Below, piece after piece: positions 9,843 to 64,000 of a stretch of 64,000 bases of DNA. The DNA comes from Isurus oxyrinchus. Lineage: Eukaryota. Positions within the stretch are counted from its first letter, which is position 1; each line of letters starts with the position of its first letter. The notes below the pieces were generated by a model that was not told the DNA's origin, did no database searches, and saw only the letters and a list, made by a program, of their open reading frames with translations. Both the position numbers and the translations under genes were made by a program. The DNA lies in assembly GCA_026770705.1 (NCBI GenBank), contig JANJGN010000011.1, forward strand, positions 113,336,001-113,400,000. The letters are read 5' to 3'.

Positions 9843-10672
9843 TCGTTTAGGCTAGGAGAGACCAAACACAGACTGGGTGACCGCATTGCGGAACACCTTA
9901 GGTCTGTCCTCAAGCATGACCCAGACCTTCCTGTTGCTTGCCAATTCAACACTCCACCCTGCTCACATGTCCATCTTTGGCCTTCTGAAATGTTCCAGTG
10001 AAGCTCAACACAAACTGGAGAAACAGCACCTCATCTTCCAATTAGGCACTCTACAGTGTTCCACTCTTCCAGACTTAACATTGAGTTTAACAACTTCAGA
10101 CCTTGATCTCTCTCTCCCCTCCATCCTCACCCCTTTTTTATTCCCTTTTTCCTCATTCATTTTTATTTTTTATTTTATATACTTTTTCCACTTATTTTTA
10201 TTTTTTTAAACTTATTTTCATTATTATTCATTGTTTTATCCCCACCTTATAGCCTACTTTTGATCTTTTTCCCCACCACCATCCCTTCCCCCCCACCCCA
10301 CCCCCACCAGGGCCATCTGTCACTTGCTCATGCTGCTCTTTCAAGAGGGCTTACCTTTGTCTGGCTTTTATCACGTTCTGCTTTCTATCCTTAATGTCAC
10401 CATTAGCACATCCTTTAGCCAGTACCACCGCCATCAACACCCCTTTGACCTTTTGTCTATGACATCATTTGCAATCTCTCCTTTGCCTCCACCTATCACT
10501 GGCCTTCTATCCATCTTCACCTGTTCCACCCCCCTTAAACAGTATAAATTTCACCACATTTTTACTCTCTTAGCTCTGAAGAAGTCATATGGACTAGAAA
10601 CATTAACTCTGTCTTTCTCTCCACAGATACTGCCAGACCTGCTGAGCTTTTCCAGCATTTTTTGTTTTTGTT
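9843..10672 (+). mobile_element. 5'-truncated Penelope-like element: GIY-YIG endonuclease C-terminus, 3' UTR and hammerhead-bearing terminal repeat
   Basis: ORF 9804-10001 GETKHRLGDRIAEHLRSV...PVACQFN; terminal CTGAAGA-AGTC-ATATG-GACT-AGAAACATTAAC at 10576-10607; co-linear with 39860-40600. Confidence 0.8.
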
Positions 10673-11604
10673 AAGGCTGAAATTACGCTGTTTGCTACTT
10701 CATAATATTGCTGTTATCCACCATCACAAGGGTGCTATGAGCTAACTTTAAGTAGTGGTCATTATGTCAAATATCCCCACTCCTAATCAGTGAACTGATT
10801 CAACTTAAATTAGGCCCATCCATGAAGATTCCATTTGCCCCATGCCAAATTGTTCAGGTAAGCAGACCTTGTTTCCCCAAACCTCTGGTCAATTTATGTT
10901 ATGTATGAAAGCTGCCTCTGGCATATTTGTGGATTGAATTTGTCTATTGAAGGAGCATGGGACAAACAGAGTATGAGAATTTGGGCTTGGGAATTAAGGA
11001 TAAGCAGGGGTGGAAAAATTTGAAGGCTTGCATTTTGTAGAAGGACTTGGGCGTGAGTGTTACTTGCAGGTAATATAATGGATCAGTGAACAACAGAAAG
11101 GGAAGATGTTTGAGGCATATGTATAACAGGTGATGGATTAAATGACTGCAAATATATATAGTGACAGCATTTGAAAATGTGGAATGGAGGCACCTCAAGA
11201 GGGAGGCCTGTGAACAGCAGAGGTTAGAGTTTAGAGTTCAGAACAGGCCATTGCACAATAGAAATGGGGAGAGTTGGCAGTCAAAATTTAGGGAAGGACT
11301 TTTTATTTGTAAGATAAAAAGCTCTGCTAAGCTTCCTTCCAAAGTAGGCCCCACCCAACTCTCAATACAAATTGGCAGGATGACCTCATCTATGAGAAAA
11401 CCTGCTAATTACAATTTCATGTGCAGTTTAAATATTATGCAGGAAAACCTGTGTACCTGGCAGAATTGGAGTTCATAAATGCTTCCAAGTGCTGCTTCCC
11501 TAAATGCAATCATTTCCCGTTGAGTAAGCAGCACATTTGAGCTTCAGAAGTTTTCTGCATTTTGCAAATAGTCTTGTTATGTTGTGGTAACTCCCTTTGC
11601 AACA

Positions 11605-12030
11605 TGTCAAGAAGCTTGACACCATCCAGGACAAAGCAGCCCGCTTGATTGGCACCATATCCACAAACATTCACTCCCTCTACCACGGCGCACAGTAGCA
11701 GCAGTGCATCTACATGATGCACTGCAGGAATTTACTAACGTACCTTTGACAGCACCTTCCAAACCCACTACCACTACCATCAGGTCAGCAAATAGATAGG
11801 AACACCACCACCTGGAAATTCCCCTCCCTATTAACTCACCATCCTGACTTGAAAATATATTGCCGTTCCTAAATCCTGGAAACCTCTCCCTAACAGCACT
11901 GTGAGTGTACCTACACGACATGGACTGCAGCAGTTCAAGAAGGCAGCTCACCACCACCTTCTCAAGGGCAACTAGGGATGGGCAATAAATAAAAGCGAAG
12001 CCCACATCCCGTGAATGAATTTTAAAAAAC
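11605..12030 (+). mobile_element. CR1 family B LINE 3' end
   Basis: KKLDTIQDKAARLIG coding remnant; end CCCACATCCCGTGAATGAAT. Confidence 0.8.
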
Positions 12031-12316
12031 GCCAGGTTGAAAACTGAAGTAGATCCCAGAACATCCCCGCATGGACAGCTTCATCTTATGCAAATTAATC
12101 CTTCCATGGGACAAGATCAAGGGTATAGAAACACCCCTCTGTATCTCTGGAAGAGTAGATGCCTCCATAATTTTGGGTGTAGTTCAGGGCACATTTTAAA
12201 AAATCTTCTGCATTGTTACTTACATTACTTTCCCTCTAGTCAATCTTTGGTTAACCCGCTATTAGAGTTCTTTAACAAATTAAACCTCTAGCAAATGGCA
12301 AAATAAGATTTCTAAC

Positions 12317-15300
12317 TCTAATAGTTATAGTTTTGGAAAATGTAGGACCAGAGCTTTAAGAATAATCCTGTTGTAAGGTCACATGATCTGTGTAAACCAA
12401 TGAGTTAGCAGCTCGGGGAAGCAGTACTGGAGAGTTCTGGAGTTTGACACACATGTGTAGTTGCTGCTGCTGTCTTTTTAATAAAGTTAAATGTTTCCAC
12501 TAAGAAAAGTTGTCTGAAGCTCAACTCTGTAACAACCTGATGAATAATTCAGATTTGGTGCTGTATCTCAGCCAGCAATTGTGAGTATCTAAGTTAAAAA
12601 TAAGATAACTCATCCGAAATGGCACAGTTTGGCAGAAACAATCTCTTTGAACTAGCCACAGATGATTGGTCTCAATATATTGGTCTTGCATTCTTCTTTC
12701 AAGCAAACAAAATCATGGGGGAGGAAAAGAAGAGAGGGATTCTCCCGAGTAATTGTGGGAGCAAGACCTACAGTTAAATCAAAGCTTGACGGCCTCCAAT
12801 GCCAGAGATTTGAAGACTTTCAGTGAATTAGTAGACATCATTAAGGGGCATTTTCAACCCAAATCCTCAATCACAATGCAGAGGTTCAGGTTCAATTCAC
12901 GGAATAGAGCCTGAGGGGAGACAATTGTTACCTACATGGTGAAATTAAACCAACTAATGGAATATTGTGATTTTGGTGAAACCCTGAATGACACCTCAGA
13001 AATTGTTTGGTATGTGGCGTGCAGGAGGATGCTATTCAGTGAAGATTGCTGGCTGAAGTGAATCTTGATTTTAAGGAAGAATTAGAAATAGCACTGGTGA
13101 TGGAAAGCACTGTAAGGGATTCACAAGCAATTCAAGGGATGCAAAATGGCGCCATTCTCCTAGTTGGGCAGGAAGTGGTGCGAAAAGCCGGGACTCCGCT
13201 GCGAAGCAGGAAACAGCCACCGCTAACCAAAAAATGAGAGGAAACAGCTTGGCAACTAAGTCAAAAAATAACTTTCGTCGATGTGGAAAGTCAGCCTTCT
13301 CGTGATTGGCAATTTTAAAAAGTAGAATGTTATTTTTGTCACAGAAGTGGACACATAGCACATAGAGACATTGTAAAGCAAGATTTAAACAGGCCTCCAA
13401 ACAACAAACAAAGTCCAATGAAGTCTATAGTGTAGAAGAGCCAGAAACAACCAATTCTGACATTTATTCATTATTCAACACAAAAGTTGGGGTGACAGAG
13501 CCAATGTTTGTTACAGTGCAAGTGAATGGTAAACATTAAAAATGGAAGTAGGCACGGATGCTTCGACCACTGTAATAGGGGAACACACTTTCAGATATTT
13601 AAATAAAGGTGATCAACAATTAAATTTGGAACAAACATCTGTCTAGTTGAAAATGTATGCAGGCGAAGAAATCCAAAGTATCGCCAGAGCAACTGCTCAT
13701 TATAGACACCAATCGGCACAGCTACCAGTGATGGTAATAGAAGGTGAAGGACCAAGCCTTCTAGGGCATAATTGTTTGAAGGAGATTAAATTAAACTGGT
13801 CCAAAATCTTCCAGTTGCGAGCAGGTGGACTACCAAAGTTGCTAAAAAAAAAATGACACTGTCGTCAAGGATGACCTAGGAAAATTCCAAGGCCAAGATT
13901 TACATGGAGCCAGAAACAATCCCCTCGCTTCTTGAAAGCAAGACTGGTGCCATACACCCCGAGAGAAGGTTGCGCTGAGCTGAACTGGCTAGAGAGGCTG
14001 GGTATCATAAAGACGGTTCACTTCTCAGAGTGGGCAGCACCCATAGTCCTTAAACCACACCAGACCTTCTGGATCTGTGGGGACTATAAACTAACGGTAA
14101 ACAGAGCAGCCAAACTAGACAGGTACCATATTCCCAAGATTGAAGACCTATATGCCAAACTAGCAGGAGGGACAACATATTCAAAGCTTGACATGAGTCA
14201 AGTATATCAGCAACTGGAGCTTGATGATGCCTCCCGGGAATTCGTAACCATAAATACCCACAAAGGGCTATACCAATATACACCCTGCCCTTCGATGTTT
14301 CCTCAGCCTGTGCCATTTTTCAGAGGACAATGGAGAGCTTACTACTGGAACTGCCTCAGATTGTGGTCTGACTGGACGATGTACTGATAACTGGTTTCAC
14401 AGAAAAGAAACACTTGACTAAACTAGAGGAAGTCTTGAAATGATTTTTAGAAGCAGGAGCACATCTGAAGAAGGAAAAATGCATTTTTCAAGCAAATGAA
14501 GTCATTTATTTGGGCCACCGGGTAGATGCCCAAGGGTTACACTTGGTTGAACAGAAGGTTAAAATTGTAAGAGAGGCACCTGCACCCAAGAACACCTCTG
14601 AACTTAAATCATTTTTAGGGATGATAAATTAGTAAGGATGATTTCTATCAAATCTATCCACAGCTATTTTTCAACCAAAGACACGGGATGACCAGTCAGG
14701 ATGGTATTCTATTATGGGATGCACAGGTAGTTGTTCCAGCATAAGGGAACCACTTTTAGTAGAGCTACACAGTGTCCATCCAGGGATCTCCAGAACGAAG
14801 ACGAAAGCACGGAGTTACCTTTGGTGGCCAGGGATGGATGGCGATATTGAAAATGTGGTAAAACACTGTGTGCAGTGTCAACAGCTGCAAATGTTGCCAT
14901 GGCAGCCCCTTTACAGCCATGGGAGTGGCCTGGTAGACCCTGGGTGCGATTGCACATTGGTCCTTTCGTTGGAACCATGTTTCTGCTGATTATAGATGCT
15001 CATTCTAAGTGGTTAGATGTTTATGAGGTAAAGTCACCAACATAAGGTGCTACTATAGAAAAACTATGCCAGAGCTTCGCCATCCACGGATTGCCAGGGG
15101 TAATCATCTCAGATAATGGCACTGGATTTATGTGTGCCAAGTTCCAATGATTTATCAGCCTCAACGGTATCAACCACATGAAGACTGCACTGTACCGTCC
15201 GTCATCAAACAGACTAGCGGAAAGGGCAGTAGAAAATTTTAAGGTGGAAATGAAGAAGTTAATAGGTGATTCATTGGAGACCAAACTTGCTCATTTTCTA

Positions 15301-16026: not shown

Positions 16027-18229
16027 CTAACAGAAGACAAAAAAATGACATAATTCCAAACAAAAATCACTAAAATTACAAACAGTAGCCTTATGTTTAA
16101 AATAATTTTCCGTCAGACTCCTACCCCTTTTTGTGAAGATATGAGGCAACCAGACAATGAACACTCTGTAGCAACGGATAAAGCCACAGGCTTAAGTTCA
16201 TAAAGAACTTGGTCTGCATATGGAAACAGTAATGCAGTTGCAAATACAACAGTCTTTTTTAGAGAAGTTTGGACTGAAATACTGCATTCTGTATAAACCC
16301 AGGCAGTTAAAAAACAGGGACCGGTGCATACAAGGGAGAGTTTCAAATTTCTTTGCATAAGTGACTTGGAATTTTGGGTATGGGAGCTTGCATTTCTGTG
16401 TAACCATCTGTGGCTTCCTCACTGGTTATAAGGTCTATCTGATTCCCATCTCTAGAACTTTGTTCCTCCCTGCTGTAAGAAAGGAGACCTCCACGTGTTT
16501 GAGATCTGGCTGTCTTGTTTCTTAGAAAAGGGAATGTTTGGTATTGTGTTATTGGTGTATATTAATGCATCAAATAACTGTCAAAGCTTGTAGAAGTTAA
16601 TGTTCCACACTTAATCAGTTTCTTTATTAAATTATTTTTCAAAATACAAGTTATTAATGCTATTAACGTGGATAAGAATATCTGCTGACAATCAGCACAT
16701 GAATATATAGACACCAGCTGTGTACAAATCTAAAATTCTTCCAAGATAATTTAATTTTACCATTGCCATAAATGCTGAAAATATACATCTTAATGTTTAA
16801 TTACAGTTTAGCTTTGAAGCAAAAACAGGGATCCTCCATTACTTTTCTTAAAAAAATTCTATTTTCCCATTGACTTATTTGTATGATCACTGATGGAAAT
16901 GAGTTAACTCATTGTTAGGAGAAATTAATCTTCTAAGCCATAGAATAAAATAATTTTAACATCTAAAATTTTAATAACATGCAAACAGTATGTGAAAATC
17001 AGACAAATTTTACTCAAAACATGTGGTACATTTCCTTACTTCAACCATTAACTGGCTCTGACTTGTCATAATTTGAACTGTGTGATCTGCTCCATCATGG
17101 ATCACTTTCAATTTATTTTTCTGTACAACACAGTAAGGAACATGGTGTACTTAAAAAATGAAGGTCAATGTATGAATAAAAATAAAGTATTTGGCACAAA
17201 AAACACATACATATTACAATAAAATTTAGCTTTGAAGCAAAATCAAGGAAGCTTTGCTCGAAGTGCTACTATTTATTAGGTTTAGCAATTCCCCTGCAGT
17301 ATTTAATAATTCAAAGGCTCCGATGGTACATAACTGTGTAAATAAATAAATTCATGGTCTACGAAGAACTGGCTCATTTAGACAGTTCTAGACATGTTGA
17401 AAGCAGTCTGAAACCAGCACCCACACTATAATAGTTAATATCTCAGCAGCTCACTTTCAGAGATCATAAAAAGTGATTCTCTTAAAATGCTTGAGAACTC
17501 CCTCTAAACAGTTAGGAAGGATTCTTCTTTATGGATTCTATGCTAAAATGACTTTGCAAAAGAATAAGGCAGTTTTATGTAAAACCACATTTCCCCCTCC
17601 ACTGTCTCACTGTTTGGTCTCTGGTGTAATTTATTTTTCTTCCCTCAGTCTGATCAGTCATGGAATGCCATACCTTTTTGTTTGGCCCTATTCTCTTTAG
17701 GTAACAAGTAAATTCATCTCTTTTGTAGTCTCAGTCCAGAATGTTGTTTAAAGCCTGTGGTTTGATTTGCTTGATAACAGAGTATAGTGCATAGTTGTTA
17801 TAAGTTTGAGGTATACATCACCAGCTTAAACCAATCTTCTTGCTTCATTAAGTGTCACTTCCAATACACAAGACAGTTATGATTTGTAATTCGACACAAA
17901 ATACCAGTCGAAACAGTCACATGAAATATAGCCAAACAGTGAATATTTCCTTTTGCTACTGACAAGCTAAACAATAATGACAGGTTTAGATTATTTAATG
18001 CAGGTTATGGTGGCAAGATGGTTTCTTTATCTGATTTGTGACCTAAGTCTTATTACATGTTATCTGTAAAGGATGTCAATTTAAAAAGGAGAACATTAGT
18101 TCCACAATTATTAAATACAATGTTTTGATATTACAATCACTTCTAGTGCTGATCCTTCCTGTTTCAATATTATTTTTAAAGCCTTGGTTTAAAGTTAGAA
18201 AATTAAGCATTGTTGATGATAACTACAAA

Positions 18230-18445
18230 GTATAAAAAATGCTGGAAAAACTCAGGTCAGCCAGCATCTATGGAGAAAAACAGTTAATGTTTCAGATCAA
18301 GTGACCTTTCATCTGAACTCCTGATGAAAGGTCACTTGACCTGAAACATTTACTGTGTTTCTCTCCACAGATGCTGCATGATCTGCTGAGTTTTTCCAGC
18401 AATTTGTTCTATTTTATTTCAGATTTCCAGCATTCGCAATATTGT
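18230..18445. mobile_element. Fold-back pair of PLE terminal repeats with hammerhead motifs
   Basis: Inverted arms about 18239-18315 and 18320-18403; CTGATGA at 18321-18327, stem AGGTC/GACCT, then GAAACATT. Confidence 0.8.
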
Positions 18446-18783
18446 GCACTGATGTTAAAATTATTGTTCTATTTTGCCCACATCAAGAAACTCATCCTTT
18501 TTAGAGGGTAAACTGAAAAGTTAAACTCAAAAAGGAAACTGTATAATCAATCACCATCTGGAATACTGCTTCTGGATCATGTATTGCTTTGTGTCCAGGC
18601 AGAAAAATAAATAAAAACAAAACAAGATTGTAATTTCTTTGTGAAGGATTGCACAGCTTCAGACACATTTTGATCTTCAATTGAAGTGTTTTGCAGGGTG
18701 TGGAATCGAACAAGTTTACTTATAAACTCTACATTGCCCACGTTAAGAATTGCCCAAGTCTTACTCATATTTCATTGATTCTT

Positions 18784-24324: not shown

Positions 24325-24970
24325 TCAACAGTTGGAGTGATGCAAGGATATAATCTGTTGCCTGATATATTTAATGTATAATTGGAAACAATAATGAATC
24401 TTGCACTAGATGATGATATTGGAGTTTCCATATATGCAAGACTTCTAAAAATCTCAGAATTGTTGATGATTTTGATGTTATAGCAACATCTAAAACCAGC
24501 ATAAAAACAGAAAATGCTAGAAGAACTCAGCAGGTCTGGCAGCATCTGTGGAGAGAGAAGAGTTAACGTTTCACTTTTGTATGATTCTTCTTGGGTGTTT
24601 TTTCCAGTATTTTCTGTTTTTGTTTCAGCTTTCCAGCATCCACAATGTTCTGTTTTTATCTAAAAGCTGCATGCAGTGATTAACGGATGTGTAGAGGGAC
24701 AGTAAAAAGTTTGGATTACCGATTAATACAAAGATGACAAAATTTTTGTCATTTGGGAAGTTGGATGGGTGTGAACACTTGGTCGATTAGTGTCAATAAG
24801 TGGGTCTTGTGAAGGAAATGTCAAAACAAGGATTGGACTTGCTTCTGTTGCCTTTGGGAGATTAAACTGGATTATAGAAGGCTCACAATACCTTAGTGAA
24901 AATGAGGGCAAAAGCTTATAGAGGCATGCTTCTCCCCACATTCTTATATGGATCTAAGCACTGGAATGTG
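24325..24970 (+). mobile_element. Old RTE-like LINE RT fragment, interrupted at 24503-24657
   Basis: Translates VGVMQGYNLLPDIFN (cf. GVRQGCILSPxLFN), NLRIVDD (cf. NLRFADD), VKTRIGLASVAFGRL and ILIW/LLYG-like remnants. Confidence 0.55.
24503..24657. mobile_element. Fold-back PLE terminal-repeat mini-element with 15-bp imperfect TSD
   Basis: ATCTAAAACCAGCAT (24488-24502) vs ATCTAAAAGCTGCAT (24658-24672); inverted arm with GTTAACGTTTC followed by the forward tail. Confidence 0.75.
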
Positions 24971-25105
24971 TGACAAAATGGCAAATACAAGTTACTCACA
25001 GCAATAATAGGATGGGACTATCCAGGAAGCAAAGACAAGAAACCACATGTATACTCAAGATCTAAAAGTGCGTCTGCCGCGCCATGGGCACAGTTCAAAA
25101 ATGGA

Positions 25106-25320
25106 CATCTATCCAGCTCTACCTGTCCATCCCCCCCCCCACCCCAAACCAGCTTATATTTCACCTCTTTTCTATTTTTCCTTAGTTCCAATGAAGAGTC
25201 ATTCAGACTAGAAACGTTAAGTGTGTTCCTCTCCGCAGATGCTGTCAGACCTGCTGAGTTTTTCCAGGTATTTTTGTTTTTGCTCTGGATTTCCAGCAGC
25301 TGCAGTATTTTGCTTTTATC
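25106..25320 (+). mobile_element. PLE terminal repeat with decayed hammerhead core
   Basis: CCAATGA-AGAGTC-ATTCA-GACTA-GAAACGTTAA at about 25188-25220; flanks TCAAAAATGGA / TCAAGAATGGA. A second partial copy lies at about 25550-25623. Confidence 0.75.
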
Positions 25321-25779
25321 AAGAATGGAAGGGACTGACTCTCATCAGCTCTGCATAAATATATATGGAACAAGAAGCTGAGCAAAACCGAGGAAGTGCC
25401 AGGATTGTCAAAAGTGACTTGTCACAGAAAAGGACAGGGATGCCTGAAACGTCCAGGCTTGTTCAGAACTACCAGCAGTCGAGTGGGCTCGCTGGGGCCT
25501 ATTGTGACAAGCAGTAATGGAGCAGTTAATGAAACTACATGGGCAGATCCTCGAAACGTTAACTGTATCCCTCGCCGCAGATGCTGTCAGACCTGCTGAG
25601 TTTTTCCAGGTATTTTTGTTTTTAGGCAGATCCTTCATTAGGAAGGGGACCATTGCCTTCTCGACTAAGTGCCAGTGGCTGCAGGTTATAAACAAATCTT
25701 TGGAAATAACCGACCATCGACATCACCAATAACATCTCTCCTGGTGCTGACACCATTGAACCCGGGGGAGGGGAGCAGT

Positions 25780-34334: not shown

Positions 34335-35075
34335 AAAGACAAAATATTGCAGATGCTGGAAATCTGAAATAAAAATGAAATGCTTGACATACTCAGTGGG
34401 CCAGGCAGCATCGCTTTTGAGAGAGAAATACTGTTAATGTTGCAGGCACATGACCTTTCATCAGAACTGGGAAAAGTTGGAGACCTGACAGGTTTTGACC
34501 AAGGACAGCGATATTTGAGGAGAATGAAAGGAAAGGTCTGTGATAGAGTGCAAAGTAGCAGCTATTAAATAACAAAAGGGGTGGTGGTGTAAAGCGAGAG
34601 ATGGGTCAAGTAAAGAAACAAAAGTTGAGTCTAGACAAGGAATAATTGAGAAAAACAGAATTATCAACTGCTACTGTCAGAAGAATTGATGGCAAAGGTT
34701 ATGATCTGAAATTGTTGATCTCAATGTTGAGCCTTGGAGGCTATAAAGTGCATAATCAGAAGAGGAAATACTGTTCCTCAGGTTTACGCTGAGCTTCATT
34801 GGAACAGTGAAACAAAAACAGAATTACCTGGAAAAACTCACGAACAGTTGAAGGGTCACGAGGACTCGAAACGTCAACTCTTTTCTTCTCCGCCGATGCT
34901 GCCAGACCTTCTGAGTTTTTCCAGGTAATTCTGTTTTTGTTTTGGATTTCCAGCATCTGCAGTTTTTTTGTTTTTATATTCATTGGAACAGTGTTAGAGG
35001 TCAGCAAGGGGGAGGGGTGGAGAATTAAGATGACATGTGACAAGGAGCTCAGGAGCATGCCTACAAACAAAACGT
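34335..35075 (-). mobile_element. Older PLE 3' fragment with hammerhead motif, interrupted at 34810-34978
   Basis: Reverse complement GTTCTGATGAAAGGTCATGTGCCTGCAACATTAAC at about 34433-34467; GIY-YIG C-terminal remnant HCSNEAQRKPEEQY. Confidence 0.7.
34810..34978 (+). mobile_element. Fold-back PLE mini-element with perfect 15-bp TSD
   Basis: TTCATTGGAACAGTG at 34795-34809 and 34979-34993; 30-bp inverted arm, then CAGTTGA-AGGGTC-ACGAG-GACTC-GAAACGTCAACTC. Confidence 0.85.
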
Positions 35076-39512: not shown

Positions 39513-40602
39513 AAAATGAAGAAGGAGGACATGTCAGAGGAACTGTTTTTGAAGGTAGCATCATCAGAACAGATGCGACGGGGATGAAGGAACTGAGAGA
39601 ATGGAATGGAGTCCTTACAGGAAGTGGGGTGTGAGGAGCTGTAGTCGACGTAGCTGTGGGAGTCGGTAGGCTTGTAATGGATATTGGTGGACAGTCTATC
39701 ACCAGTCTTTCACGCAAAAGATGCAGCACCTGCCCCTTCACTTCCTCTCTCCTCACCGTCCAAGGGCCCAAACACTCCTTTCAAGTGAAGCAGCATTTCA
39801 TTTGCATTTCCCCCAACTTAGTCTACTACATTCGTTGCTCCCAATGCGGTCTCCTCTACATTGGAGAGACCAAATGTAAACTGGGCGACCGCTTTGCAAA
39901 ACACCTGCGGTCTGTCCGCAAGAATGACCCAAACTTCCCTGTCGCTTGCCATTTTAACACTCCACCCTGCTCTCTTGCCCACATGTCTGTCCTTGGCTTG
40001 CTGCATTGTTCCAGTGAAGCCCAACGCAAACTGTAGGAACAGTACCTCATCTAGGCACTTTACAGCCTTCCGGACTGAATATTGAATTCAACAACTTTAG
40101 ATCTTGAACTCCATCCCCACCCCCTTTCTGTTTCTTACCCCTTCCTTTTGTTTTTTCCAATAATTTATATAGATTTTTCTTTTCCCACCTATTTCCATTA
40201 TTTTTAAATCTTTTATGCCCTGCTAGCCTTTTCACCCCACCCCCACTAGAGCTGTACCTTGAGTGCCCTACCATCCATTCTTAATTAGCACATTCATTTC
40301 GATAATATCAACACCTCTGTGTTCTTTTGTTCTTTTGTCTGTGACATCTTTTGATTATCTGCTCCTATCACTGCTTGCTTGTCCCTACAACCACCCCAGC
40401 CCCCCACAACTCCTCTCCTCCCACCCCTGCCACCTTAAACCAGCTTATATTTCACCCCTTTGCTAAGATTCACTCAGTTCTGCTAAGGACTCGAAACGTC
40501 AACTCTTTTCTTCTCCACCAATGATGCCAGACCTGCTGAGTTTTTCCAGGTAATTCTGTTTTTGTTTTGGATTTCCAGCATCCGCAGGTTTTTGTTTTTA
40601 TC
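39513..40602 (+). mobile_element. Neptune-type Penelope-like element, 5' truncated, with inverted RT segment (39513-39704 on - strand)
   Basis: ORF 39656-40036 RKRCSTC...NLVYYIRCSQCGLLYIGETK...RFAKHL...PVACHFN (GIY-YIG with Cys linker); inverted piece encodes KPTDSHSYVDYSSSHP...SIPFSQFL; terminal repeat with GAAACGTCAACTC at about 40493. Confidence 0.88.
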
Positions 40603-41439: not shown

Positions 41440-41530
41440 TAAAGGCAAAATACTGGAAATCTGAAACAAAAACAAAAAATGCTGGTAAAACTCAGCAGAT
41501 CTGACAGCATCTGTGGCGAGAAAGACAGAA
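41440..41530 (-). mobile_element. PLE terminal-repeat fragment without ribozyme core
   Basis: AATGCTGGTAAAACTCAGCAGATCTGACAGCATCTGTGG is the reverse complement of the family tail. Confidence 0.7.
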
Positions 41531-42072: not shown

Positions 42073-42167
42073 AAGCTACCCGTTGAAGGACTCGAAACGT
42101 CAACTCTTTTGTTCTCCGCCGATGCTACCAGACCTGCTGAGTTTTTCCAGGTAATTCTGTTTTTGTA
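42073..42167 (+). mobile_element. Short PLE terminal-repeat insertion with 13-bp imperfect TSD
   Basis: CCGTTGAAGGACTCGAAACGTCAACTC; flanks ATTGTAAGTATTA (42060-42072) / ATTGCAAATATTA (42167-42179). Confidence 0.75.
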
Positions 42168-42204
42168 TTGCAAATATTATTCCTACCAGCTATAGGAGAT
42201 TTGG

Positions 42205-42329: not shown

Positions 42330-45300
42330 TGTAAAACTCTGGATAAAACACTTGCGACTACATTCCAGATTGCTATTGTAACATCAACATTTATTCCTGT
42401 ACCCTGCACCTGTATATTGCACCTGCTGCAATTATGGCAATTTCAAATGCGTAATGCACTGCATCCCTCCCCTTGTTAAATGAGAGGCATTTCTTCTTTT
42501 CAAATTATCTTAAGAAGTTATAAATCCAGAAGAAAGTTTGATTATTTTTGAATCAATAAAATATTTCAACTTCCAGAACAGGCTGCCTGTTTCACAGTGT
42601 CAATGGTTTGTTTTCTAAAGTGTGAGCAATGTAAACAATAAACTTAAACATAACTTGAACATTCACCTTCACCAGTAATACTTGACCTTACTACGTCAAT
42701 GATCTTTTCCACCTCTTCCTTTTTTGAAAAATACTAATTTGAAGCCAGACACTATTAGGTATGCAAACATTACTTTTTGCATACAGTTATTTTTCTTTGC
42801 TCTGCTTAAATATAGCATGAAATTCACACATGCAAATACAACAAAAGAAAATATTAGCAATATTAAGCTTTTTCATGTGAGCATAATTTGATTTATCAAA
42901 TTGAGTTCATGAATTTTTTTGTGTTCTGTGCTTCATGTCCGGTTTGGTTATATGATTATTTAAGTATTTGAAGTTTAAAGCTAATCTGAGGGTGGTTTAA
43001 ATTTGCTTTGTAAACTTATAGTTTTACAATGCAGCCCTTTTGCATTAATTTAACAAAGCGCAGACTTTGAATTCAGTAATATGTAATGAGATGAAAGATA
43101 TGTTCAACTGAAAACATTTTACTCCATAAAATAATCCCTTAAGCTTGGAGCATATTTCCACTCGTGTAGAATACTGATGTATGACATTAGGTGTTGTCTC
43201 ATTTAACTCCTGTTCCTCATCTGAGATGTTGATATCTGAATCCTACTTAATGCTTGCGAATGGTGTTTTCAGTGCTCTGAAGAATGAAGCATTTTGTATG
43301 ATGATTTGTGACCCGTGCTTAGCAATGATCATTGATCCTTTTGTGTTGGCCGCAGCAAATGGCTGGATGTCATAGGGCGTTGTTTTCTTTCCAACGTGAC
43401 CATTATGTTTCACAAGCACTTTATGTTCTAGCTTTAGTGGCATAGCTCTGAATTTTATGTTGCGCTCTACATTTGCTTTCTTGTAGTCACAAGGATGTGC
43501 AAAGACAACTAACTGTAGACTTTCCAGTGGTTGAGTGAGGAGTCACTTTAATTATGAAGAAAGTGATACATCTGCTTCCACAACTTGTTCTCAGCTTAAA
43601 CTGTACATATCACTTTATCCTTGACTTCTCCATTAGCTCTTGGCCAATGGGATGTGATTATTTAGTGAGTGGAACCTGGGTTGTTCACGATTTTACTGAA
43701 CTCGTCACTGTTGAATGGGGGTCCATTTTTGCTTCTTACCATTTCCAAAGTGAAAATCTGATCAAGCTTTGGGATGAATGCTTTCACTCAGGTAGACGTA
43801 TCCTTCTATTTCTGGAATTCTGCTATGGTCATCAGTGACACCAGACAAGTGCTCGCCAATGGGCATGAAGTTAATGTGAACTTCAATCCATGGGCCTGTA
43901 GGTAGCTCAGGCATGTCAAGCAGATTGCGTAGGATTGATATTGTGGGTGCTTGACATGGCAAACACTGATTTTATGCTCCACTATGCAGTCAATTTTGGG
44001 GAACCGCACTTTTTGCTGAAGGATTTGCTTGGTTTTGACAATCCCTAGTAACTCTTGTGCTATTTCTATAATGACTGCAGAATGACAATGCTGTGTAACA
44101 AACAATCAGAAATGGTTGCAACTGCGAGCTCATTTTGAACATTGTGATAATCTTTTGCGTGAGTGATTTTTGTTTGTAGACACTCTCCCAGTCATATGTT
44201 TCCAGATTTATGATTCCATAGCTGTCATAATTATTTGCCATGCTTCATCTTGTTTTGTTGCCACTTCGATGTCAGTTAATTTTAGCAACTTTGACACAGG
44301 TTTATTTGTACATAGTAAAAATGTTTGGCAACTTTTTCTTCATGACTGGCAATGACTTCAAACTCACTTACATACAAATACAGATGAAAGCCCAAGATGT
44401 CATATGTGATTGAGCCTACTTCTCTCTATGAATAACGTTTATCTACAAGAGTTAGTAATCTGCTTGCCAGCATGACAATTGATCTGTATCATCTTTCTGC
44501 CAACTGGGCTTGCATCCTTGATTAGCTGGACGGTTTTCTCAGAGTTGAAGTAGGCACTTATGCAACTTGCTGACAACTGTTGTTTTATTTGGTGCACAGC
44601 CTGTGATTTAGACCGCTTCCACTCGGTCTCTCTTTTCAGATTGCTTGAGGGGGCAGAGTGCTTCGCAAGATCAGGAATGAAGTAACTGCAGTACATGATG
44701 GGCCCAAGCAGACTCCAGACTTGTACATTTGTAGGATGTGAAACATTTGCAATGGGTTCAACTTTCTGTGGGTCTGGTGGTCCTCCTTCACTGTTGAATA
44801 CATGATTGAAGCATTTGTTTCTGTTTTCATTGGACAGGCACTTGGTTTTGTAAGGCTAGATTCTATAAGACATTGTAGGCATGTCTCAAGTTCACTTTCA
44901 GTGTAGACTGTAGATGAGAATATCATCACTGATGTTCAGCATGCCCTTGAAGTGCAGACTGAATCATGTGCTGAATATGTCAGCTGTTGAGTTGACTCCA
45001 AAGTTGAGTCTCTTGTATCAAAAGAGCCCAATGTGAGTGGAGAATACTGTAAGATACCTCAGTTCTTCTGCAAGCTTAATTTGATGGTAGCCTGCATTGA
45101 GGTCATGTTTAGCACCATTCACTTGCTCTTTGATATTGTCAATTGTTGATGCTAAATGCCTTTCTTATATTGCTTTGTTTGGTGACCGTATACCAACGCA
45201 GATTCTGATCTTTGCCTCCACCTATCACTGGCCCTCTACCCAGCTCTACCTGTCCCACCCCCCTTGACCAGCTTATATGTCACCTCATTTCTTATTCTGA

Positions 45301-46198
45301 GTTCTGATGAAGAGTCATATGGACTTGAAACGTTAACTGTATTCCTCTCTGCAGATGCTGAGTTTTTCCAGATATTTTTGTTTTAGTTTCAGATTCTGAT
45401 CTTGTTCTCCCTCTTGGGTTTTTTGACCACTTGTATGGGTGAGTTCCAAGGGCTGGGCTTAACCTCAGCTTCCTCAAGTTTAAGTAAGCTGAAGTTGCTT
45501 TTCTATTTGTTTTCTGATATGAAACTGTGTTCATCTGAGCAGATGTGTGATTGGAGACACATTAGTGTCTACATTCAACTTGCACGTAATACCTTTCAGT
45601 TTGTTGATACCAGTGAAGCTTCTTGCTTGGTGCTTCAGTTGTTTTATATGCAGTATTGCATTCTTCTTGGATGTGAAATGAGTTGTCAGTGCCTCAGTTG
45701 TCTCAAAAATATTTTTCAATTCTTCACCTCCAAAGTGGAGAAGTACGGTCCTTTTTCTGTTGTATCAGTTGTTTCAAAAACTGTCATTGCGCATTTGGTT
45801 CATCGCAGCCACTTCTGCCAATGCATGCACATCAAAGTGCAATAGTTGGGCATAGCTATCGTCACCTTGATCATCAACGTAACAAAAGTGCATGATTAAG
45901 GATCCAGGATAATGTTCCTCGGGCACAATCACAAAAACGTCATCAAAACTGACAATTGTAAGAAGCAGGACAGCATGTTTGCTATGTATAGAAGAAATGC
46001 TTATTACACCGTCCAAAAGTACATTCTGTGGAATGCGACAATCTTTGCTGTCATTGTAAAACTCTTGGGTAAAACACTTGAGGCTACATTCTGGATTGCT
46101 GTTGTAACATTAACACTTTTTTCCTGTATCTTGCACCAGTACATTACACATGCTCCATCGAATAACTATGATGGTCTCAAATGAGTAAATTCACTACA
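42330..46198 (-). mobile_element. Decayed Ty3/Gypsy LTR retrotransposon with both LTRs, PPT, PBS-like site and 5-bp TSD
   Basis: LTRs 42330-42463 and 46055-46198 (TG...CA); TSD CAACC at 42325-42329 and 46199-46203; PPT (- strand AAGGGGAGGGA) 42464-42474; PBS-like TGACAGCAAAGAT next to the 5' LTR; pol remnants KIRICVG, DLNAGYHQIKL, DASPVG, KTKQILQQKVRFPKID, PTGPWIEVHINF. Confidence 0.88.
45213..45389 (+). mobile_element. PLE terminal repeat with near-intact hammerhead core, nested in the Gypsy RT, 14-bp TSD
   Basis: AGTT-CTGATGA(45304-45310)-AGAGTC-ATATG-GACTT-GAAACGTT-AACT; CAGATTCTGATCTT at 45199-45212 and 45390-45403. Confidence 0.85.
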
Positions 46199-48127: not shown

Positions 48128-48260
48128 AGCTGAAGAAGAGTCAAATGGACTTGAAGCGTTAACTCTGTTTTTCTCTCCACAAATGCAGTCAGACCTGAGT
48201 TTTTCCAATATTTTCTGTTTTTATTTCAGATTTCCAGTATCTGAAATATTTTTCTTTTAA
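48128..48260 (+). mobile_element. PLE terminal repeat with hammerhead motif
   Basis: CTGAAGA-AGAGTC-AAATG-GACTT-GAAGCGTTAACT. Confidence 0.75.
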
Positions 48261-54264: not shown

Positions 54265-54267
54265 CGT

Positions 54268-56355: not shown

Positions 56356-56976
56356 AAATTCATGTATGTACAAGGCATTTATTTTTGATATGTTGGTGTA
56401 CTTAAGTAACATAACGGAGTTGCATGTCTTTTCAAATCTCTTACTAAATTTAGCCCTCAGAAATTTTGACATCCTGGGTTGTGATGGCTTATCATGTTGT
56501 AGCATTCATTTGAAGTGTACTCTTATGATTTTTAAAATGGTCTTTCATCAAATTATGCAGCAAGAAATTTTCAGTTTAAATTATGTATTTTTGTTTTTGC
56601 ACTTATTCTGATTTTTCTCACTTGAAAATACACATTTGCCACTTCATGCTGGTAATATAAGAAAAGGAAGCTGATGCAAAAGCAAAATTCTTTGTGAATA
56701 ACCCACGAAGCATTCAGTATACTCGCTAATAATATTGAGCTAGGTGCTTTGCTGAGTATTGGATATAAATATATCAGCTTCATTTTTTTAACGTCCTGCA
56801 GCTTTTGAGTGCTCTTAACAAAATTTACCAGCTTTCACTTTATCTTATTCTCAATCTTTCAAAGGATAATTGTGTAACAAGCATTGAAGTTGATGAGCTG
56901 TCTGATTCACCCGTGTCTTTCACTTTCTTTTAGAACGGATATACGTGAAAGGTCAGTGCCTCTGAAAGAAACCACA

Positions 56977-57987
56977 ATGGAAAAAACATGGAAGTCATGG
57001 ACATATGCCAGGAGATGGCTGATTGCCTTGGTCTCATGGTCCTGGAGCTTATGTCGAATTTCCTTGCTAGCTTTGATTTTAACCTTTCACCTATATGGAG
57101 GGATCCTTTTGCTTCTCTTGATACTTGCATCAGTAGCAGGTATATTATACAAATTCCAAGATGTGCTCCTCTACTTTCCAGAGCAACCACCCTCCTCACG
57201 TTTGTACATTCCTGTGCCTACTGGGATCCCATATGAAAATCTCTTTGTTAAAACCAAGGATGGAGTCCGACTCAATTTGATTCTGTTGAGGTACACTGGA
57301 GATAATGCGCCATATTCACCAACTATAATTTATTTTCATGGGAATGCAGGTAATATTGGTCACAGGATACAAAATGCTCTGTTGATGATGGTCAATCTGA
57401 AAGCCAATGTATTACTTGTAGATTATAGAGGTTACGGAAGGAGTGAAGGGGAACCGAGTGAAAAAGGCCTTTACTTGGATTCGGAGGCTGTACTAGACTA
57501 TGTGATGACTAGACCAGATCTTGATAAAACAAAAATAATTTTATTTGGCCGCTCCTTGGGTGGAGCGGTGGCTATTCACCTGGCCTCAGAGAATCCACAT
57601 CGGATTTTTGCAATAGTTGTTGAGAACACATTCCTCAGTATCCCACACATGGCCAGCACTTTGTTCTCCTTCTTTCCCATGAGATATCTTCCACTCTGGT
57701 GCTACAAGAACAAATTTCTGTCTTATAACAAAATTGCACAGTGCAGAATGCCTTCTCTTTTTATTTCTGGATTGTCAGACCAGTTAATTCCACCAGTCAT
57801 GATGAAACAACTGTGCGAACTGTCGACATCACGGACTAAAAGACTAGTCATATTTCCAGATGGAACTCACAATGACACTTGGCAGTGCCAGGGCTATTTT
57901 GCTGCTCTTGAACAATTCATCAAAGAGTTATTAAAAAACAGTTCACATGAAGAAATAAAAACCACATCTAATGTAACAATAATATAG
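56977..57987 (+). CDS. ABHD13: Alpha/beta-hydrolase domain-containing protein 13, 336 aa, single coding exon
   Basis: ATG in good Kozak context (ACAATGG), MEKTW...; hydrophobic N-terminal segment; FHGNAGN, nucleophile GRSLG, Asp in [10 protein letters not shown], His in GTHNDTW; acceptor CACTTTCTTTTAG ends at 56933; head-to-head with LIG4 as in mammals. Confidence 0.97.
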
Positions 57988-60780: not shown

Positions 60781-60949
60781 TACTTCAAATGAAATGGAAT
60801 GCACTCTTCATGTTGAGTTTTGTCATTGTGTGCTGATCAGAGCTGAAAACTACTTTTGTTTGACAGAAGTGTGCTTGTATATACATAGTAATACAGGATA
60901 TTCTACAAATATCTATTAGGCATTATGAAAAAGGACAAGGACTATTTGA

Positions 60950-60953
60950 TGTG

Positions 60954-60999
<46 letters not shown>
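60950..60999. repeat. (TG)n(AT)n microsatellite
   Basis: Short TG run followed by a long AT run. Confidence 0.95.
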
Positions 61000-61005
<6 letters not shown>

Positions 61006-63237
61006 TGGTTTATTGATAAAGTTGTTCGCCTAGCACACCTGTAATACATGGATGCAAATAATTGAATCGTTATTAGGAAGGTTACAAGTTAAATCTGTGG
61101 CAGAAGGCAATTCCAAGAACCAACAAATCAATCATTTTAATAAGATTTTCTAATGTAAGCAGCTTGTCAGGATTATTGCCAGCCCTGCACCATATCTCAG
61201 TATATTGATGATCTTTTAATGTAACTTTTTTCCTGTGTATTTTACATAGTACCAGAACAAAAGAATGCCCAAGTTCTTTCTCTGAAAAATAGTCCTTTTT
61301 AAAGTCAATTTGTTCCTGGTATCGTAACTAAGCCAACCACTTGCAAAGCAATTACAAAACCTTTTTTCCTACTATAGGTAAATGTAGGACCTATTTCCTG
61401 GGACTTTAAATTTGTGAACAGCAACGGGATGCAGGAATCGAAATAGCTGTCCAGTCAAGGAAAATAGTCCCAAAATTAGGGTGATGAGTCGTTATTCCCA
61501 TCCCAACTTTGTCCTTGAAATTGGAATTATGTGAGCCTGACCATTAGGTTCATAGCTATCGATCTGATGTTCTCGAGCAGGATTTTATCATGCAAAACTA
61601 CAACCAGCCAACAGAATTTGCATATGGCATCACAGTTTATCTGTAATAAAAGTGTTTTCCCTGCCTAAAAGAAAAGAAAAACAAAACAGCATAGTGACAG
61701 TGTCCAACTCATAACAAGTGATTCAAGCACTAAGAATAACATCAATAATGGTGATGGAGCTGAAAAAAAATCTATATCTATCTTAATTGCTAACATTGGA
61801 TTCAGTTCTTTACTCCTGGCAGGAACCAAGGGACGAAGTTTCCGCTTGTCCCTAAGATGGCACAACTCTTGTCCATCCTGCGTCTCCTACTCCAACTGAT
61901 TTCTCTTGGTCATTTTGTCAGGCTACTAGTATTATTTCACTCATTGACAAGTTGCTTGCCTTAATTAGGAACAATGTGTAGCATAGCTAAGGTGAATTTA
62001 AAGATTTTCTATCAAATGTTTTCAAAAATTTCTCTTTGCACTAGTCCTTTAAAGTTTAAATCTTGCCATTATAGCAATGCTGAACACTGGTGCTGGAAAT
62101 GTTGCACAAGTGACAAGAAATGTGTTATATGATGAATTTTCCTATCATTTGGATTTCATTCGGTGCTCATATTTGGGCAGATGCATGGTCGATATCACTG
62201 CCATCAGAAAGTCGTAGAAGTGACAATGGAATAGCATTCACACAATTTTCTTTCCCTGTTCTGTAGTTTAACTGGGAGCTGGTGTAACAGTGGAAAATAT
62301 TATCCCATATTCTTAACCACTTTCTGCAGGCAACTGGTCCAGTTCATCTTCAATAAGAGATCATGTGTTTTTGGCACGACTATATTAAAATGGAAAAATT
62401 GTCAAATTCTCAGCAAGTGGCAGGGAAGGCATAATTTTCTACTTCCAATAAAACCACACAAATTCCAAATGACTTGAGTACAAAGTAGAGGAACCAGAGC
62501 CCTGATCAGACAATACCAAAAGATTTCTGAAATTAGTGAGTGCAGAGTAACCTGTTTTCAGCAAACTTAGTAAAGTACAACAATATACTTACACAAGCTA
62601 AGGTGAGCATGGAAGATAGCTTAGAAACTTCCTCTATACACCTTGCTTCCCAAAAGCAAAATCAACTTTTTTAAAAACACAAATGTGACAGAAAACATAG
62701 TGTCAATCTTTCTGACATCATTACAGCTTGCTAACCAATACATTGCTGCCTTCAACACAAGATGTATGGGCCTTGCACCTAGACACAAACCATTACCTTG
62801 CTGATCTCGCATAATTTCAATTCTCTGAGCAGACGTTTCAAGTGACTGTGCAATTAGAATGACCTTTAAGGACCTGATAAAGCCACAAGCTGTAATAAGT
62901 TGCCCACAAATTTTAAAATACTTCCATGAACCAAACCCTGTACTGACATTTTTTTGATCACCTTGACTGGATGCAAGAGCTCTTCCAGATTTCAAGCCAG
63001 TCACTCACATTTATACACATCAAAAACCCTAACACTTAACAGGTTGTATAATAACTGCTATAATCTCTAAGATGGTACCTTTAATACACAAATGTATCTA
63101 CCAAAACCAAATTGACTTCACATAAGAAAGCTTCTAGGGTGCCCCTGTTGAACAGAGCACATCAATATAACAGCTCATGCCTACATGTCCTGGCACAATT
63201 GCTGGATGTAGGAAACAATTTAAACCAATACTTTGAT

Positions 63238-63335
63238 GCCCTGATGAAAGGCCACAGACCAGAAATGTAAACTCTGTCTTTCCACAGAAGCTGTCACACC
63301 TGCAGGGAATTTCCAGTATGTTCTGTTTTTATTTT
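63238..63335 (+). mobile_element. Old PLE terminal repeat with hammerhead motif
   Basis: CTGATGA(63241-63247)-AAGGCCACAGACCA-GAAATGTAAACTCTGT plus family tail. Confidence 0.65.
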
Positions 63336-64000
63336 AAATCAACATTTGCTTTGCTGGAATAAATGGGCATTGGTGATAAATTCAGAGAACAGATCAAAAT
63401 CCCCTACTCTACCACTCTCAAGAAGTAATAGCTATTTTATCTCTGCCTCATTTCTTCATAGATTATCCAGTCAAGGATATATGCTGAAACAGTTATAAGA
63501 GCAACCCCACTGTATACAGACTGGGAAGTGGAGTTGACGTGATCAATCACCTGACACAGATGATAATTTGTGTCACTAACCTACCTCTAGTATTTTTCTG
63601 TCCAGCTCAAGATCATGAAAAAGAAGGGCATAGGTCTTACCAGGACACACTGAAAGTCAAGAAAGGCAATCACTTTGTAAGGATCGAAGTCAGTTTTTTC
63701 AAAAGAAAGGAGGTGCTTGTGTGAGAAGCAGCCAGAAAATCTTTTCTTTTGGGACTTATGTTGTTTTAAAATTTTGTATATTTAGTTATGTTGTATCTGA
63801 AGGGGAGGAGTCCTTCAAAGGAGGCGGAGTCTGCTCATTAAGTTTAGTAATTGGAACTAGGTTTCTCTACACAGTGACCAATCATGCAAGCACAATGTTT
63901 AGTTTTAGTTTCAGAGCATGATGTGTTATATATCCTAGCATAATGCTATAGTTTGGGGAAAAAATCACAAAGTACAGCTCATGCTAACAGGAAATAAGAT

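Follow-up and report, generated by a model that had tools for sequence, protein, structure and literature searches.

Minimal hammerhead ribozymes of metazoan Penelope-like elements (PLEs) have been described by Cervera and De la Pena (2014; PMC4209133). In that description they are of type I, lack loop 3 and are palindromic at 15.2-16.2; they have an additional nucleotide lying between 9 and 10.1 and a short stem I, covary between subfamilies, and occur mostly as single copies tied to truncated PLEs, and also as opposite-strand pairs. The repeats analysed here, from the shark Isurus oxyrinchus, share these traits, but differ in a stem II of 5 bp, an A10.1-U11.1 pair in subfamily C and U6 in the youngest subfamily. 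The shark genome holds roughly 500,000 termini (a number not taken from the pattern or DNA searches of the genome, which score best candidates only) against 4,000-9,000 motifs, counted differently, in coelacanth and Xenopus (PMC4209133), and the shark copies have a fixed 5' end, which the part of that account used here does not describe for its motifs. Another close system is that of the EN+ PLEs Neptune and Nematis (Craig et al., 2021; PMC8557442), for which the same order of RT, CX2-5CxxC linker and GIY-YIG has been reported, together with partial tandems, inverted 5' copies and an optional tail of 30-40 bp at one end. In the Poseidon element PAc of the anole (Frangieh et al., 2024; PMC11167929), the tail is accounted for by two internal start sites of the RT, as is proposed here, both DNA strands are cut and extended, and the insertion reported in vitro proceeds without need of hammerhead cleavage. 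PAc is of a different clade; its ORF starts inside the hammerhead, whereas the first in-frame ATG of the shark element lies about 130 nt past the predicted cut, and its start site is AC-rich, whereas that of the shark, like the shark tail, is U-rich.

Non-LTR retrozymes, as presented in a recent preprint (Li, Clavereau and Pollet, 2026; bioRxiv 10.64898/2026.07.22.740005), resemble the shark repeats in being noncoding, in their type I hammerhead, in an origin from PLE terminal repeats and in the presence of dispersed monomers. They are defined there by tandem units with complete hammerheads; no copy in the stretch studied here is tandem, and one array elsewhere in the shark genome (L149/L150) fits. 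Finally, the Penelope elements of Adineta and Drosophila (PMC3846280, PMC2377424) have been reported to carry TATA and initiator-like motifs, or a mapped start, in the terminal repeat upstream of the ORF, and share with the shark repeats head-to-head palindromic junctions and TSDs, there of 8-10 bp. The Drosophila Penelope promoter is described as TATA-less and internal, in contrast to the TATA-like box found here, and in the accounts of Arkhipova et al. the head-to-head junctions arise by self-priming on an antisense template rather than by priming on both cut strands. Since both the element type and the minimal hammerhead are already known, the present finding is mostly ordinary.

Insertions in the window and their parent element

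The window, that is, the whole 64-kb stretch of DNA analysed, contains 16 copies of the motif according to a profile built from natural copies, against 0 in the reversed sequence. The total comes to 17 termini in 14 insertions, 3 of which are head-to-head pairs. All 13 places listed by an earlier sequence-only reading carry the repeat, on the strand given and within about 10 nt, and its claim of very high density in the genome holds; it had missed termini at 24599-24657 (plus strand) and 41441-41529 (minus strand) and a short inverted arm at 34810-34840 (minus strand). The terminus is laid out as 3'UTR, minimal type I hammerhead and two fixed 3' ends separated by about 35 nt. Positions of 5' and 3' ends are counted below relative to the predicted hammerhead cut, minus being upstream. 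The insertions, in window coordinates, are as follows.

9831..10672, plus strand: 5'-truncated Penelope copy of subfamily B; GIY-YIG remnant (9831-10100), then 3'UTR, TATAAAT at 10543 (-29), decayed hammerhead from 10572 and short 3' end (+65)
18197..18447, both strands: head-to-head subfamily C stubs, 5' ends at -33 and -30, both motifs damaged; the pair folds as a long hairpin, which lies 337 nt downstream of the LIG4 stop
24478..24657, both strands: head-to-head pair; its minus arm, 24478-24592, starts at -29 and has a degenerate core, and its plus arm, 24599-24657, is tail only
25102..25317, plus strand: subfamily B, 5' end -122, TATA-like box at 25155, degraded core, long 3' end; TSD of 11 bp with one mismatch
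25550..25624, plus strand: subfamily B stub cut off within stem II (-11), short 3' end; TSD of 12 bp with one mismatch
34335..34824, minus strand: subfamily C, old; C-terminal piece of GIY-YIG at 34824-34702, then 3'UTR, hammerhead with damage (core 34464) and long 3' end; split by the nested young pair at 34810..34978
34810..34978, both strands: young head-to-head pair of subfamily A; the inverted arm spans 34810-34840 (+66 to +36) and the direct arm 34847-34978 (-29 to +103); perfect TSD of 15 bp (34795-34809 / 34979-34993)
39515..40601, plus strand: subfamily A; coding remnant 39701-40104, inverted 5' coding piece 39515-39706, hammerhead core internally deleted near 40484
41441..41529, minus strand: subfamily B tail without hammerhead (5' end +3)
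42087..42170, plus strand: subfamily A stub cut off within stem II (-15), short 3' end
45213..45389, plus strand: subfamily B, 5' end about -129; the sole complete minimal hammerhead of the window (45300-45338), predicted cut after 45334; perfect TSD of 14 bp at 45199 and 45390
48130..48258, plus strand: subfamily B stub starting at -31, with GAAG in place of GAAA
48612..48740, minus strand: subfamily C stub, 5' end -33, intact core, stems partly decayed
63241..63355, plus strand: subfamily C stub starting at -29, with decay in stems I and III

The window repeats are mostly decayed; the copies do share the motif in part, as had been proposed, but only 1 of 16 keeps it whole. All are single or head-to-head, with no tandem copies in the window. 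TSDs flank 4 of the 14 insertions, in agreement with the proposal of separate insertion events. The copies had also been described as mostly noncoding, which is right for about 80% of termini; 3 of the 14 window insertions are nevertheless joined to Penelope coding remnants. LIG4 transcript contigs contain a head-to-head pair with an A-to-I-like cluster.

Judged from sequence, the repeats are the 3' termini of a Neptune-type Penelope element with RT and GIY-YIG, the clade being placed solely by motif. The Penelope origin that had been suggested is supported by this RT and GIY-YIG linkage and by the coding remnants upstream of three window copies; at loci retrieved with the motif, GIY-YIG is present some 420-430 nt upstream. 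Long open frames of the element occur elsewhere in the genome. One of them is a natural repeat-ORF-repeat copy (L103) with an open frame of 926 codons, in which Pfam matches RVT_1 (E 1.4e-7, above cutoff) and GIY-YIG (E 9e-4, below cutoff); no useful Pfam match came from three short PLE fragments that were in part frameshifted. In four loci (L102-L105) a C-X4-C-X2-C linker stands between RT and EN, directly before GIY-YIG, and fits the CX2-5CxxC that is the criterion for Neptune and Nematis in the description of these elements (PMC8557442). Partial tandems are present at 7 of 20 long-ORF loci. With its RT and C-terminal GIY-YIG, pseudo-LTR, inverted 5' copies and 30-40 bp tail, the element belongs to the EN+ PLEs.

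The hammerhead motif and its variants

Subfamilies B and C carry, by sequence, the minimal type I core C3-U4-G5-A6-N7-G8-A9 with G12-A13-A14-A15 and U16-H17, and stem III is a palindromic ACGU without loop. The minimal type I hammerhead of the sequence-only reading is supported, for the core in these two subfamilies. A CTGAnGA core in all copies is not: A6 is present in 17/19 copies of subfamily B and 10/10 of subfamily C, but U replaces it in 31/34 copies labelled subfamily A, the youngest, whose core (window copies at 34847, 40484 and 42087) reads CUGUYGA. Variants at hammerhead position 6 may reportedly be listed already in the 2017 work of Lunse et al. The covariation claimed between subfamilies was recovered in stem II and not in stem I. 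Across three subfamilies, pair 1 of stem II is G-C or A-U and pair 2 is A-U, G-U or G-C; 3 of 5 pairs show two-sided change (16 cells; 0/500 shuffles), and 92% of cells are paired against 19-42% in slid controls, a covariation that spans about three related lineages only. Minimum-energy folds and co-folds of the isolated 39-nt motif took alternative forms and not the full hammerhead, a result that says nothing on activity. An Rfam scan of the window at E<=1 returned no hammerhead family; a match to the microRNA MIR6146 (43 bits, gathering 59) was rejected as being the head-to-head hairpin.

5' ends of the copies and the origin of the stubs

In a census of 112 copies, 29 begin at -28 to -42, that is, 28-42 nt upstream of the predicted cut; this bin was chosen from another sample, the census being separate apart from two window copies common to both. 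Per 100 nt at risk the bin holds 3.7 ends, compared with 0.13 further upstream (27-fold, p 2e-24), and its rate is 6.6-fold above the downstream one. Upstream of -43 the rate is flat (0.12-0.15 per 100 nt), and inside the hammerhead (-6 to -27) it is raised (0.9-1.5 per 100 nt); 22 of the 112 termini reach -449 or further. Among copies long enough to reach the hotspot about 40% stop there. Subfamily A accounts for 14 stops in 37 copies at risk, and search-derived young copies for 16 in 52 (a 15-fold peak), while the hotspot is weak in subfamily B (4/19 at risk, p 0.16 against the downstream rate) and the subfamily C references, only about 70% identical, can overcall short ends. Mapping to a single reference can miss ends between -36 and -60, as in L328 (-34 by BLAST, about -47 by eye). 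The same position recurs in contigs of two other runs, which show a loose end at -35 (83 and 23 contigs), and in three composite insertions (L316, L329, L337), where a segment ends at -35 and then jumps to another element part.

A TATA-like box lies about 30 nt upstream of the hotspot base and an initiator-like motif on that base. The former (T and five A/T, within -34 to -23) is found in 50/52 long copies of subfamily A and 38/44 of B, with 0-2 in controls, and in 10/20 of subfamily C, where control windows reach 10; the latter (YYANWYY, at stem I) is found in 36/44 B, 12/20 C and 14/52 A copies. In contigs from four runs, three of them putatively RNA and one large and probably DNA, depth is far higher over the hammerhead-tail than over the ORF, and the excess is greater in two of the putative RNA runs, although contigs cannot show starts or levels. 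No intron-like joint appeared among the contig matches listed for the repeat-leader region, and a possible intron after the tail (GT..AG, by eye) was not supported.

Taken together, the repeats are probably 3' termini that an autonomous Neptune-type Penelope element inserted separately, the short ones being run-off cDNAs from the predicted RNA start. The RT of the element would start at an internal site, some 65 or 100 nt beyond the hammerhead, and would then fall off the predicted 5' end of the still-uncut RNA. This RNA would have the first base of hammerhead stem I as its own first base, and stubs would form without need of hammerhead cleavage. Two templates are possible: the full-length RNA at its 5' end, or an RNA transcribed from the terminal repeat of a truncated copy, any such copy sufficing if it still has its TATA box. 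With either template the stub loses this box and would be a dead end. That about 40% of copies stop at one likely RNA-start spot suggests by-products of copying rather than an independent mobile family.

A single linear RNA from -35 does not explain the copies that contain the 5' leader and run across the upstream hammerhead, since these seldom stop at the hotspot (1-2/26 against 14/37; Fisher p 0.002-0.008), and long copies therefore need another template. Tentatively, and with rather low probability, two template pools can be proposed: uncut linear RNA, primed at the 5' tail, would yield stubs of 100-140 nt that stop at the transcription start, and cut, circularised RNA of unit length, about 3.3 kb, would yield the long copies and partial tandems, which would roll through without a stop. 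If so, the circular intermediate proposed for Penelope in 2014 would here have left its first genomic footprint, and the U6-variant hammerhead would work in vivo. Linear RNAs with long read-through would also account for the partial tandems, with no circle involved. Half a million copies give a statistical footprint of the still poorly understood Penelope replication: 5' ends stop sharply at the predicted start and hardly ever fall at the cut, and leader-bearing copies disregard the stop, so that the role of the hammerhead (circle formation or nothing) becomes testable.

It is unlikely that the hotspot is instead an RT stall or processing site, set on longer RNAs by the hammerhead fold or a bound protein and unrelated to a transcription start. 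Its coincidence with the 5' edge of the ribozyme and the raised rate of ends within the hammerhead would suit such a site, but a polymerase moving 3' to 5' on RNA would be expected to stall where it enters a helix rather than once it is out of it; moreover, the TATA-like box and the initiator bracket the same base, and a stall should affect leader-bearing copies equally, of which 24-25/26 pass.

More improbable is a self-propagating non-autonomous family, retrozyme- or SINE-like, amplifying from short master copies, which is close to what the sequence-only reading had put forward. Such a family would account for the fixed 5' and 3' ends, the TSDs (26/71 units against 11/300 controls) and the large noncoding share of termini, and elsewhere in the genome there are internally deleted two-hammerhead derivatives and one tandem array, with units of about 301 nt (L149/L150, the array; L238, L324, L325, L328). 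In the preprint cited above, animal retrozymes are non-autonomous PLE derivatives, one host being a chondrichthyan (bioRxiv 10.64898/2026.07.22.740005). Against this, short (47) and long (99) subfamily A copies show no fixed difference (permutation p 0.22, over a 90-nt region with few informative sites), and stubs arise from all three subfamilies and lack the TATA-like box, which lies outside them; short copies of this kind are likely run-off cDNAs and not a self-propagating retrozyme. A SINE-like lineage of their own with diagnostic changes was not found, nor, judged by the TATA-like box, a promoter of their own; at least two tandem units with complete hammerheads occur only in the L149/L150 array and never in the window, where most motifs are broken. 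In the census and in young search-derived copies the 5' ends do not as a rule fall at the cut. A family of internally deleted mini-elements, queried with one junction, was rejected: the junction was spanned in only 8/40 scored places, and the variation of junctions and subfamily backgrounds favours recurrent template jumps.

Very improbable, too, is a tie between the 5' ends and the ribozyme cut site. Ends within 5 nt of the cut are found in 7/112 census copies, and the leader-bearing L321 starts exactly there, but the count is 1/48 in census subfamily A and 0/56 in young search-derived copies, and the main peak stands 30-40 nt further upstream. Of the seven, four are old and abut a similar end of an unrelated repeat, and another (L263) has the hammerhead 5' half some 115 nt higher up, an arrangement suggestive of a later insertion. 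The possibility of a second 5' peak at the cut was weighed, and most of these ends were put down to later insertions or inversions. Ordinary random 5' truncation of full-length elements, to which the 2014 description ascribes single minimal hammerheads (PMC4209133) and which the sequence-only reading had named as fatal to its own proposal, agrees with the flat end rate upstream of -43 but is hardly credible, being contradicted for subfamily A by the peak at -28 to -42 (27-fold in the census, 15-fold in search-derived young copies), from which only a mapping artefact could rescue it.

3' ends and head-to-head pairs

The 3' ends in the census fall at +60 to +74 in 42/112 copies and at +90 to +104 in 53/112, and such alternative ends have been described for the PLE tail (PMC8557442, PMC11167929). 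In vitro demonstration of internal priming is confined to the Poseidon element of the anole (PMC11167929). By rule, 19 head-to-head pairs were scored, including one false pairing, and in 7/7 young pairs one arm has the short 3' end and the other the long one. Under the run-off reading favoured here, these pairs would come from priming on both cut strands. Head-to-head pairs seed long hairpins in host transcripts, for example in the LIG4 3' region, and hairpin-forming stub pairs may, again with rather low probability, serve shark mRNAs as substrates of A-to-I editing, in the manner of an Alu-like class.

Setting and abundance of the termini

All 13 motifs listed by the sequence-only reading were found in the window. 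A profile built on 11 natural copies, with the reversed sequence as control, recovered 16 termini in the window versus 0 in the reversed sequence, and BLAST adds one short inverted arm, which gives a total of 17 termini in 14 insertions, 3 of these being head-to-head pairs. The window also contains the following features.

Other features of the window
18784-21597, minus strand: open frame of the DNA ligase IV gene, LIG4 (Pfam DNA_ligase_IV)
56878-57987, plus strand: alpha/beta hydrolase gene, which we take to be ABHD13
25800-26400: CpG-rich stretch bearing tandem repeats, between the divergently oriented LIG4 and hydrolase genes, of which it may be the shared promoter
2863-3432, 29624-30383, 31587-32432 and 13875-14387: decayed frames (RT, endonuclease), presumably of CR1-type LINEs, and one RT fragment, presumably LTR-retrotransposon-like

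A census of 1,004 kb combined the window, the adjoining 200 kb and, from large contigs, 74 scattered 10-kb stretches placed at round positions; its 114 matches, minus one duplicate and one without a reference alignment, left 112 termini for end mapping. For the 4.98-Gb assembly, the 75 distinct matches among the scattered stretches (740 kb) correspond to about 500,000 termini genome-wide (Poisson range 400,000-630,000, the sample not being strictly random), and the density in the window is about 2.5-fold above that of the scattered stretches (p 0.002). Near-identical groups of loci on small contigs (L163-L174 and L313/L314/L317/L318/L320; contigs C52, C71, C121, C39, C56 and others), indicative of large duplicated arrays, were each counted as one event or excluded.

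One head-to-head pair (18197-18447), 337 nt beyond the LIG4 stop, is predicted to form a long hairpin (-114.8 kcal/mol, z -12.6), and a single contig covers the LIG4 frame and the hairpin in each of two putative RNA runs. Among the differences listed for the first run, T>C (A>G on the LIG4 strand) affects 8 of 51 T in the paired part versus 4 of 632 outside; among those listed for the second, 7 lie in the paired part versus 3 outside. This clustering (p below 1e-6), which includes two runs of three adjacent sites, looks like candidate A-to-I editing of a 3'UTR hairpin, in runs whose RNA status is only guessed, which may come from a related species or one study, and which carry at least 28 differences in 2 kb.

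Penelope identity and the hammerhead motif

The feature is real and the element type is already known. Its identification as Penelope termini holds: the C-terminus of GIY-YIG lies upstream of the motif-found loci, at about 420-430 nt in subfamilies A (the youngest) and B and about 260-350 nt in C, and coding remnants precede three window copies (10576; 34460, minus strand; 40480). The 34.8-kb site is nested: an old copy's GIY-YIG remnant is interrupted by a young head-to-head mini-insertion, which is flanked by a perfect 15-bp target site duplication (TSD). Searching the genome with an RT fragment produced 48,583 first-look candidates; 150 of these were scored, and open frames reach 943 codons among the matches listed. 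Locus L103 has the structure repeat-ORF-repeat, with 3,323 nt between its hammerheads; its frame (2306-5083, minus strand) matches RVT_1, matches GIY-YIG below cutoff, and includes a C-X4-C-X2-C linker, of the CX2-5CxxC type by which Neptune and Nematis elements are recognised (PMC8557442). The family has been active recently, judging from long unbroken RT and GIY-YIG frames with 95-98% mutual identity at six loci (L102-L104, L108-L110), several of them in partial tandems. Most termini are non-coding, as had been proposed, since only 22 of 112 in the census reach -449 or beyond (positions count from the first base after the predicted cut, which is 0). TSD-like repeats of 8-17 bp surround 26 of 71 units versus 11 of 300 random controls.

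The motif consists of a 4-bp stem I, the core, one extra base, a 5-bp stem II, GAAA and a palindromic ACGU with no loop 3, the layout that Cervera and De la Pena described for minimal type I hammerheads (PMC4209133); a window scan with Rfam (E<=1) did not detect it. In a chosen set of 36 copies, which is not random and consists mostly of long and fairly intact ones, 92% of the cells in the predicted stems are paired. The covariation claimed from sequence stands for stem II, where three pairs change on both sides (for one pair, this is seen in only one sequence). Stem I does not covary among these 36 copies. With only about three related lineages, the stem II changes are supportive of the predicted hammerhead fold, not proof of it. 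Of 113 census termini, 20 keep the whole motif; of the 16 in the window, one does. Position 6 is U (CUGUYGA) in 31 of 34 A-labelled copies, including the young window copy 34847, and A in 17 of 19 B and 10 of 10 C copies, and the U6 type makes up 18 of the 20 complete census motifs. Since U6 marks the youngest subfamily, and a natural A6C variant cleaves slowly (<0.1 per minute; PMC3088659), the most recently active lineage bears a core change that is expected to weaken cleavage. In one A branch, the 3' arm of stem II and GAAA are partly duplicated immediately upstream of stem I.

Ends of the short copies and a predicted RNA start

There are two 3' end sites in the census, at +60 to +74 (42/112) and +90 to +104 (53/112), which match the optional 30-40 bp tail of Penelope-like elements; in the anole element (PMC11167929), the RT starts at two internal sites whose spacing equals this tail. 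All 7 young head-to-head pairs have one arm at each 3' end. The 5' ends, mapped on 156 ORF-linked natural copies and two long references, proved non-random, as the earlier reading required: the rate is flat upstream of -43 (0.12-0.15 per 100 nt) and rises 27-fold at -28 to -42 (3.7 per 100 nt), where 29 of the 70 copies reaching the zone stop. By subfamily these stops comprise 14/37 in A, 4/19 in B (weak) and 11/14 in C, whose references are only about 70% identical; 16 of 52 among the 56 young tail-picked copies (single reference) and 7 of 16 window termini also end there. The modal end, mapped to a library of A references, is -34/-35, the first bases of stem I, and few ends lie at the predicted cut (7/112 in the census, 0/56 young copies). 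Loose ends at -35 are listed among contigs of other runs. In the literature searched, mainly the main texts of open-access papers, we found no paper that describes shark Penelope hammerheads or a fixed 5' end of short copies.

Among long copies, 50/52 of A and 38/44 of B have a TATA-like run that begins 29-32 nt upstream of the stem I A, versus 0-2 in control windows; the run reads TTATATTT in A and most B and TATAAAT in older B. In C it occurs in 10 of 20 long copies, with up to 10 in control windows. The A of stem I lies within YYANWYY in 36/44 B, 12/20 C and 14/52 A. Rotifer Penelope has TATA and initiator-like motifs in its terminal repeats (PMC3846280), and the start site of Drosophila Penelope lies within the upstream repeat (PMC2377424). 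We infer that the element RNA starts at stem I. On such an RNA, the RT would prime internally at +65 or +100 and run off the 5' end, giving a cDNA of 100-140 nt, that is, the stub, the short terminus without coding sequence. Priming on both cut strands would produce the head-to-head pairs. Both strands are indeed cut and extended by the anole protein (PMC11167929); Arkhipova et al. favour antisense self-priming for head-to-head junctions (PMC3846280). The suggestion that the stubs propagate themselves as retrozymes fares poorly, given that they have no TATA box and that the 47 short and 99 long copies of A, a sample including search-selected loci, have no fixed difference and are equally divergent (1.6 and 1.8 differences; permutation p 0.22); 2 of 19 columns differ at an uncorrected p of about 0.01, one being N7 and the other an alignment edge.

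Some old C tails start at a GTTAAC/ATTAAC palindrome and directly adjoin one end of a different repeat, which has short inverted repeats at its termini. This pattern suggests insertion of a MITE-like element at the palindrome.

Old C tails starting at the palindrome
L050:2637
L255:4097, minus strand
L263:9196
L205
102869 on the window's scale, downstream flank

Templates of the longer copies and derivatives

Among 26 segments that include the 5' leader, with five 95%-identical loci on two contigs entered as one, only 1-2 stop at the -35 hotspot (p 0.002-0.008), and the others continue 86 to >1,400 nt into the preceding unit; a further -35 stop, L337, came from a junction-selected search and was kept out of this count. 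A single linear RNA starting at -35 therefore cannot account for all copies, and the long ones need another template. One option is RNA that reads through from tandem arrays or from host promoters, another is efficient strand transfer between repeated ends, and a third is a hammerhead-made circle, as proposed in 2014. Priming in the anole element requires sequence downstream of the start site, namely the first 172 nt of the ORF (PMC11167929); if this were valid here, priming on a unit-length linear RNA would be confined to its 5' tail and all longer products would come from a circle, a scheme that we consider unlikely.

Non-autonomous derivatives look rare (2 of 56 young copies). In the tandem array, at least 4 direct units and an inverted 5' part are present, each unit having a TATA box, a U6 hammerhead, the tail and the leader; it falls within the non-LTR retrozyme definition of Li et al. 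(2026, bioRxiv 10.64898/2026.07.22.740005), who describe retrozymes from one chondrichthyan and saw only 1 of the 9 Xenopus dimers they tested cleave. In the composite insertions the template jumps between terminal repeat and leader near +177 to +197, with varying junctions, often at a short shared AT-rich word.

Derivatives and composites elsewhere in the genome
L149/L150, G000:C6 ~39,887,150-39,890,800: tandem array of internally deleted Penelope units of ~301 nt
L238, L324, L325, L328: deletion products with two hammerheads
L316, L324, L325, L328, L329, L333-L339: composite insertions
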